This document shows, piece after piece, positions 61,290 through 62,346 of a DNA stretch of 64,000 nt (position 1 is its first letter; each line of letters starts with the position of its first letter). Position numbers and translations under genes: made by a program. The stretch covers positions 192,001 to 256,000 of the forward strand of contig CAVVXH010000011.1 of NCBI GenBank assembly GCA_963752155.1, read 5' to 3'. The notes beneath the pieces are model-generated. The model was given only the letters and a program-made list of their open reading frames with translations, was not told the origin of the DNA and did no database searches. The stretch is from an uncultured Parachlamydiaceae bacterium (GTDB lineage: Bacteria > Chlamydiota > Chlamydiia > Chlamydiales > Parachlamydiaceae).

Positions 61290-61569
61290 GATAAGAACAA
61301 TAGAAGAAGACAAGATAGAACGATAAAAACGATAAAAACGATAAAAACGATAGGAACGATAGGAACGATAGGAACGATAGGAACGATAGGAACGATAAGA
61401 ACGATAGGAACGATAGGAACGATAAGAACGATAAGAACGATAAGAACGATAAAAACGATAAGAACGATAGGAACGATAGGAACGATAAGAACGATAAGAA
61501 CGATAAGAACGATAAAAACGATAAAAACGATAAGAACGATCGGAACGATAAGAACGATAAACGATAAGA
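61290..61569 (+). repeat. left 9-bp tandem array (ACGATAAGA / ACGATAGGA / ACGATAAAA), ~28 regular units plus a degenerate start
   Basis: read directly. Confidence 0.95.
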
Positions 61570-61863
61570 ATGATGGAAGAAGACATTCTGAACTGTTGTT
61601 TTGAGGTCATGAAGGAGCTTGGGCAGGATTTCTGGAAAAAATCTACAAAAATGCGCTATTGATTGCGACGGGGCCTAGAGGTCGAAGTGGAACGACCTTT
61701 TGAAATAATGTTTAGAGGCAAAGTAATCGGTCGATATTACGCAGATCTGGTTGCGAAAAACCGTGATTGTGGAATTAAAATATTGCGAAAGTAGGTTCGC
61801 GAACATTATAAAGTTTCTCACTTCAAATCGATTTGTTAGTAAATTTCCGGCATAGGAGAGAGT
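61570..61863 (+). pseudogene. GxxExxY (PD-(D/E)XK, PDDEXK_3-type) nuclease gene with several frameshifts/deletions
   Basis: MMEEDILNCCFEVMKELG / AGFLEKIYKNALLIA / RGLEVEVERPFEIMFRGKVIGRYYADLV / KTVIVELKYCE / LLVNF in successive frames. Confidence 0.88.
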
Positions 61864-62346
61864 GTCGTTCCTGTCGTTCTTATCCTTCTCATCGTTCCTA
61901 TCGTTCTTATCGTTCTTATCGTTCCTATCGTTCTTATCGTTCCTATCGTTCTTATCGTTCTTATCGTTCCTATCGTTCTTATCGTTCTTATCGTTCCTAT
62001 CGTTCTTATCGTTCTTATCGTTCCTATCGTTCTTATCGTTCTTATCGTTCCTATCGTTCTTATCGTTCCTATCGTTCTTATCGTTCTTATCGTTCCTATC
62101 GTTCTTATCGTTCTTATCGTTCCTATCGTTCTTATCGTTCTTATCGTTCCTATCGTTCTTATCGTTCTTATCGTTCCTATCGTTCTTATCGTTCCTATCG
62201 TTCTTATCGTTCCTATCGTTCTTATCGTTCTTATCGTTCTTATCGTTCCTATCGTTCCTATCGTTCTTATCGTTCCTATCGTTCTTATCGTTCCTATCGT
62301 TCTTATCGTTCTTATCGTTCCTATCGTTCTTATCGTTTTTATCGTT
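61864..62346 (-). repeat. right 9-bp tandem array (ATCGTTCYT), ~53 units, inverted relative to the left array
   Basis: read directly. Confidence 0.95.

Follow-up and report, generated by a model that had tools for sequence, protein, structure and literature searches.

What is the relation between a nuclease gene and the two long, inverted arrays of a 9-bp word that enclose it in a chlamydial genome? The window analysed here is a stretch of 64,000 nt from an uncultured Parachlamydiaceae bacterium (G000:C11:192001-256000, with G000 denoting the source genome). In it, the remnant of a GxxExxY gene lies between a left array of 27 units of the pattern A[CT]GATA[AG][AG]A, with at most one mismatch per unit, and a right array of 53 units that are the reverse complement of the left-array unit (strict span 61869-62345; Table 1). 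Unit numbers, like array lengths and orientations throughout, are given as assembled, and the exact counts depend on the assembly. Including its frayed edges, the left array was delimited by TRF at 61284-61574 with 33 copies. The two arms are 91-94% complementary across ~245 nt. The spacer measures 306 bp from strict array to strict array, or ~295 bp when counted from the first ATG (61570). The original prediction had described inverted 9-bp arrays around a GxxExxY gene, which is what we found, and all peptides it quoted are present across the three frames of the spacer. In the motif it gave as AGFLEKIY the initial A is due to a frameshift; the intact gene reads GPGFLEKVY.

Table 1 Features of the array element and of a second array pair, in positions of the window
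Feature	Position	Strand	Basis
Left arm, frayed outer edge, over a short stretch similar to the gene's 5' end	61280-61319	+	Sequence
Left array, 27 strict 9-bp units, core word ACGAT	61320-61562	+	TRF and pattern
Last arm word, supplying the start codon (ATG 61573; second ATG 61570)	61563-61575	+	Same layout in intact copy and homologues
GxxExxY/PDDEXK_3 pseudogene, eight deletions, 3' end absent	61573-61857	+	PF13366 match, alignment to intact copy
Right array, 53 strict units, partly a 27-bp higher-order repeat	61865-62345	-	TRF, pattern, complementarity
Outer end of right arm: ancestral 9-8 word spacing plus outer linker 'B3', common to many copies	62346-62385	-	
Second inverted pair of the same arrays, gene-less, 85-bp spacer, nested in the arms of a different 9-mer family	22052-22628	.	

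Without any correction of its frames, the remnant scored 26.9 bits on PF13366 (cut-off 22 bits), and an intact copy in the same genome reached 138.5 bits on TIGR04256 (cut-off 35) and 135.4 bits on PF13366, so that the proposed family assignment stands on both copies. Over 312 aligned bases, 295 are identical between the two, and the window copy lacks 33, 1, 8, 2, 1, 18, 3 and 1 nt. Because of these eight deletions and the missing 3' end relative to an intact copy of the same genome, the window copy is, judged by this alignment, a true pseudogene. It had thus rightly been called dead, but intact homologues do not have to be sought elsewhere. The arrays were also considered as a coding repeat, and this was rejected: their reading frames give low-complexity products and no element lies within a long gene. 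Elsewhere in the window, a perfect 7-bp tandem repeat with six copies (21926-21968) adjoins the outside of the second array pair. An AAA-ATPase-like/PDDEXK_9 gene is located at 62524-63963 on the minus strand, and sequence from its 3' flank recurs beside several array elements.

A pattern search of the source genome returned 43 elements. Of these, 33 are array pairs, 28 of them facing and 5 back to back, and the other 10 are arrays without a partner. The 76 arrays have a median of 11 units, range from 3 to ~59 units and occupy 10,557 bp in total. An intact gene is found in one of the 43 elements. Pieces of the interior of this intact element were detected at 29 loci (the intact one and 28 others), and 24 of the 29 have arrays on both sides, compared to 7 of 5000 random positions. 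This excludes chance as a reason for the pairing of arrays and gene and agrees with the suggestion that they form one unit.

Among 19 derivatives that were aligned, nine loci share one deletion junction, four share a second one, to which two more are related, and two share a third. As the same exact junction occurs at many loci, the deleted interior was copied as such, repeatedly. The neighbouring genes and the outer repeats differ between copies with the same deleted interior. When scored against two conserved outer linkers, the interior is oriented one way at 15 of 20 informative loci and the other way at 5, a count that omits one locus matching the non-coding tail only; both large deletion groups are present in both orientations. 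These flips match the outcome of recombination between inverted arms. The derivatives have common substitutions that are absent from the intact copy, and therefore their source was a sister of that copy or an earlier state of it. The lengths of left and right arrays are correlated (rho 0.54, p 0.003, n = 28). Unit composition revealed no sharing between the left and right array of the same element (p 0.65, n = 21), and concerted evolution of unit variants between paired arrays was rejected on this result.

All 43 elements are intergenic, they occur in every gene orientation, and 13 of them lie between divergent genes. A role as terminators was rejected, since convergent genes flank 6 of the 43 elements compared to 152 of 753 overall, which is no enrichment; scans for promoters and terminators yielded 0 promoter-like and 1 terminator-like site. 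At G000:C11:273600-273743 an array pair encloses a short transposase-like fragment, presumably of the IS256 type, and arms can therefore bound foreign DNA.

The intact gene (G000:C10:276674-277099, minus strand) encodes 141 amino acids, and its start codon is supplied by the last arm word as in the window copy. PDDEXK_3 was the sole Pfam family detected at E 0.1 (residues 17-129 of 141), and the same scan gave no resemblance to a transposase. Across 40 proteins, the residues E32, D71, E81, K83 and Y99 do not vary and Q95 hardly does; G29, E32 and Y35 of the GxxExxY motif are likewise invariant in 40 sequences. We take the combination of D..ExK and QxxxY to be the pattern of RecB-family nucleases. 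A structure model (pLDDT 89.9) was matched best by Foldseek to SSO0001 (E 1.1e-5), which we assume to be a Cas4 protein, followed by lambda exonuclease, LHK-Exo and RecE. A wider fold search returned PD-(D/E)XK nucleases with Z scores of up to 8.1, a middling value only, and no solved structure was found among the sequence homologues. According to the model, the protein has a Cas4/RecB/lambda-exonuclease-like fold of the PD-(D/E)XK type and is a predicted nuclease. For 11 genes of the clade with the word ACGAT, mean pS was 0.78, with 35 of 55 pairs not estimable, and the median dN/dS of the 20 estimable pairs was 0.07. By these rates the GxxExxY protein is under purifying selection.

The arms were then compared across homologues. 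The set comprised 62 near-full-length loci out of 80 plus 21 further loci, minus 16 loci that were dropped as 12 near-identical copies from one genome and 4 duplicated or truncated ones; the close homologues are mostly from Chlamydiota. Inverted arms with a score of at least 40 were present at 46 of the 63 homologues with full flanks, compared to 0 of 236 shifted controls, and at a score of at least 30 the figures were 53 of 63 and 1 of 236. The expected enrichment of inverted arms at intact homologues is thus real. Among 13 non-chlamydial plasmid or viral loci, arms scored at least 40 at five and at least 30 at seven, and at several others the word repeats are direct or self-folding. On the Sphingomonas plasmid NZ_CP155749.1 (L265) a GxxExxY gene with inverted arms is inserted between fabD and fabG, and its left arm falls within the annotated 5' end of the gene.

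Long tandem arrays had been regarded as the usual ends of the unit. This did not hold: in 11 close homologues the arm consists of four words at a spacing of 9-8-8 or 9-8-9 and extends over ~30-35 bp. The word ACGAT is kept at 79 of the 88 positions in these homologues, and in most of them the ATG is supplied by the last left word. The arms are non-palindromic and each pairs only with the opposite arm. Their linkers agree at 5.3 of 7 positions within an element but at 3.5 of 7 between elements (p 5e-5), and the right arm is conserved as well as the left one, though it is far from the start codon. Since the ACGAT word is retained and dN/dS is low while synonymous sites are saturated, word and protein are both under selection. 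In the source genome, the 8-bp step is kept at the outer end of many arrays and it is the inner, gene-proximal 9-mer that has multiplied. A genome of the same genus has the same linkers with arms of 3-4 units. A triple-word pattern was found in 48 of 401 genomes, with 824 matches in the source genome and 220 in the next one. Given these counts and the four-word arms of relatives, the long arrays are, as far as sequence comparison tells, a local expansion of an ancestral four-word arm. Extra arms in the vicinity, as in REPtrons, were noted for only 3 of 19 intact genes and this type of arrangement was rejected.

Six word classes could be distinguished (ACGAT, ATGAT, AGGAT, CAGAG, CAAAG and CGAAW). 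A word could be assigned to 46 of 67 proteins, from which a quick LG+G4 tree was built with a few arm-encoded N-terminal residues left in place. On this tree the classes, defined after seeing the data, required 7 changes compared to 27.4 for shuffled labels (0 of 200 shuffles). Unit sequence and protein phylogeny thus co-vary as anticipated; because kin share labels, the test demonstrates co-inheritance and not binding. A branch with support 93 sets the 14 ACGAT rows apart from the rest, and CAGAG and CAAAG are mixed. Paralogues within one genome carry different words, e.g. ACGAT and CAAAG in the source genome. Its second GxxExxY clade (C6:157328-157669, L003, and C4:110655-110981, L002) is accompanied by CACAAAG-type repeats, of which a pattern search found 113 arrays; this family also occurs in the window at 29421-29543.

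A GxxExxY match was obtained in 130 of 401 genomes, and among the matches listed 10 genomes besides the source reach at least 76% identity; 9 of these 10 contain the triple-word pattern. There are 20 other genomes with at least 10 pattern matches. For 12 of them, which are drafts, the matches listed include no gene above ~60% identity, and 3 of the 12 lack any GxxExxY match. The arrays in these genomes are mostly short gene-less foldbacks of the same word, dispersed in other Chlamydiota, and a search for gene remnants in 20 such regions gave 1 weak match.

Evidence on how the elements moved was sought at their borders. A 7-nt direct repeat, as a mark of target duplication, was seen at 1 of 26 gene-remnant loci and at 11 of 300 random positions, with fuzzy boundaries. 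Empty and filled sites in related genomes were compared as had been suggested, and G001, G002, G006 and G037 provided no such pair. No empty site for the window element was found; its adjoining genes are not syntenic in G001, and its 165-aa neighbour was not found in G001 or G002. In G002, G006 and G037 lnt adjoins lpxC, an adjacency that is broken at the intact element. It is also broken in G001, which has no element there, and no ACGAT array precedes lpxC in the source genome; the locus therefore offers neither a filled/empty pair nor a proven rearrangement.

We propose, with a probability of about 0.45, that the nuclease has its own arm as the target of recognition and cleavage, and that host recombination copies, flips and lengthens the DNA bounded by arms. 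The architecture, the conservation of word and spacing, the selection on the protein and the spread of deleted copies in both orientations are seen directly in the genomes compared. The element would be a selfish cassette, in which the gene for a 141-aa single-domain PD-(D/E)XK nuclease is bordered on either side by the multi-word recognition site of this protein, in inverted orientation. The protein would bind the four-word arm and introduce a nick or cut, probably while the arms are in extruded or single-stranded form. Recombinational repair by the host would then copy the arm-bounded DNA into other arm-containing sites without target duplication, would flip the interior between the inverted arms and would lengthen the inner 9-mer by slippage in the course of repair. 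In this scheme binding and cutting would cause the spread, and the window copy would be one dead derivative in a population with one assembled intact gene. It is possible, though in our view doubtful, that this extends to GxxExxY proteins at large, as widespread site-specific Cas4-like nucleases of a transposase-free copy-and-paste process that are each specific for a short word array, cut their own inverted arms and leave copying, inversion and lengthening to repair; the source genome would then have undergone a burst and its array growth would be a product of the enzyme. Several observations stand against the cutting model. The 12 of 20 array-rich genomes without a close gene among the matches listed belong here, as do four gene-less array pairs that owe their movement to an unrelated MITE, the ~717-bp carrier element of another genome, the two RAYT genes of the source genome, the fruitless search for an empty site, the rarity of extra arms (3 of 19 intact genes) and the unshared unit composition of paired arrays. 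A further 9-mer foldback family of the source genome (core AAGGAC, 84 arrays, 31 facing pairs) speaks against a reading specific to nucleases: its arms enclose a frameshifted four-helix-bundle gene (TIGR02436; G000:C1:43159-43800, L165), a similar partnership of gene and word array in a family for which we know of no nuclease fold. Among the homologues of this gene, related word foldbacks often adjoin, and enclosing arms were found at just 2 of 58. A gene-less pair of the AAGGAC family is present in the window at 5505-5642.

In a rather unlikely but serious alternative, the protein binds the arms or regulates its own gene through them, and the copies spread without cutting, through hitch-hiking on MITEs or RAYT repeats, recombination and slippage in a repeat-tolerant genome. 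The MITE family has 16-bp conserved ends (169 end matches in the source genome) and 9-bp target duplications; the four array pairs reside in members of 911-987 bp, each with a perfect 9-bp duplication, and no matching transposase was identified. These four members also contain remnants of further genes, and two other members are located in the window (31339-31458 and 54513-54676). In another genome (L073-L109, 13 loci) the cassette is carried within an element of ~717 bp that is bounded by terminal inverted repeats; both ends are found at 11 of 14 loci, nine of them near-equal at 714-717 bp, and there is no obvious target duplication. Several copies in G029 follow a 3' end that is transposase-like. 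This genome has 29 GxxExxY matches, and on its contigs C30 and C44 tandem 3' GxxExxY fragments recur every ~340-355 bp. The source genome itself holds two RAYT genes, each with its own tandem repeats (C10:596670-597707, L163, and C11:40740-41348, L164), which could act in trans on the arrays; the former has a C-terminal extension with a weak match to a DnaA model. Remnant loci nested in other repeat families and the overlap of the start codon by the left arm also fit such a passenger. Nevertheless, not one of the 48 MITE end-pairs listed contains a gene-remnant locus, identical deleted interiors sit in different outer contexts, the catalytic residues are invariant, and the right arm, remote from the start codon, is conserved equally well.

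A host function would be conceivable as well: by site-specific cleavage of single strands at its arms, in incoming or displaced DNA, the nuclease would tune recombination, the foldbacks being its marks and not its offspring. The repeat-gene-repeat layout with protein-specific repeats resembles NTS-ssnA-NTS in the accessible text of PMC11893778, and the gene-less short foldbacks dispersed in other Chlamydiota and the purifying selection on the protein would suit it. The patchy presence of the family in 130 of 401 genomes, with close relatives in only 10 others among the matches listed, argues against such a role, and the large decayed population of the source genome better fits the turnover of a selfish element; we consider it improbable. 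Still less probable is an event at the level of RNA, in which the arms would pair in the transcript and the cassette would be looped or cut out, harmlessly within operons, the word serving as an RNA-binding site as in ORF-bearing rRNA intervening sequences. The arms do fold on each other, left and right linkers co-vary, the Sphingomonas plasmid cassette interrupts fabD and fabG, and the four-helix-bundle gene, which we take to belong to the family of rRNA intervening sequences, has a related layout. Mismatches between sense-strand arms were G-U in 103 and A-C in 96 cases (51 loci); the lack of a G-U excess is mildly against an RNA stem. The position of all elements in the source genome between genes, including those between divergent ones, also counts against this reading.

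The view that GxxExxY proteins have no defined function is consistent with the survey PMC3424549, which in its accessible part lists the function of GxxExxY/PDDEXK_3 (PF13366) as 'Unknown' and makes no mention of flanking arms. In the accessible portions of PMC3733652 and PMC4679880 there is no mention of GxxExxY and of 'nuclease', respectively, and the part available of bioRxiv 10.1101/2021.01.26.428298 has one passing mention of the family. A search that covered few subscription journals and main texts rather than supplements found no published description of a GxxExxY gene with its own inverted arms, and a unit of such a nuclease and its putative target is apparently undescribed.

An orphan nuclease family thus gains a concrete candidate substrate, and the six word classes represent natural specificity variants across clades that are suited to swap tests. 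The source genome is useful in that it combines an intact gene with dead derivatives that have junctions in common, with interiors in flipped orientation and with arrays of 3 to ~59 units. If the enzyme drives the spread, it would join RAYT and Ssn as a third class of enzyme that has a dispersed repeat family of its own, and it would provide a route by which bacteria build satellite-like arrays of ~10 kb.

Like MITEs and other non-autonomous IS derivatives, the elements described here comprise one intact gene and internally deleted derivatives in which both ends are retained and the same junctions recur. They differ in having no transposase domain and no fixed outer end, in the flipping of interiors relative to the flanks, and in that target-site duplications at gene-remnant loci, whose boundaries are fuzzy, are not above chance.

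The comparison with REP/RAYT made in the original prediction applies to the layout and to the difference in enzyme, but not to tandem arrays as ends. RAYT genes encode an HUH/Y1 tyrosine transposase and are flanked by inverted repeats that are also dispersed extragenically as doublets, as described in the accessible parts of PMC3116915 and PMC3733652. In both systems, clade-specific inverted repeats flank the gene and are also dispersed as gene-less intergenic doublets. In contrast to RAYT, the enzyme of the cassette is a predicted PD-(D/E)XK nuclease, and the Y1_Tnp matches in the source genome belong to two other genes. Four short words in a row make up the arm, whereas REP repeats are short and palindromic with a GTAG or CGTC end; moreover, dispersed cassette copies often keep deleted pieces of the gene, and growth of their arms has produced long tandem arrays.

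Ssn nucleases are GIY-YIG enzymes (cd10448) with hairpin repeats of 20-50 nt, termed NTS or SRM, according to the accessible text of PMC11893778. Common to both is a small single-domain nuclease gene inside its own repeat, with repeats that differ by homologue and many dispersed copies. Unlike Ssn, the cassette protein is Cas4/lambda-exonuclease-like by its predicted fold, has no GIY-YIG domain and matches GxxExxY/PDDEXK_3 over nearly its whole length, and its arm is non-palindromic and pairs just with the other arm, whereas NTS is a hairpin. The locus therefore combines a gene with an inverted repeat family of its own, and both the enzyme and the type of site differ from those of REP/RAYT and Ssn.
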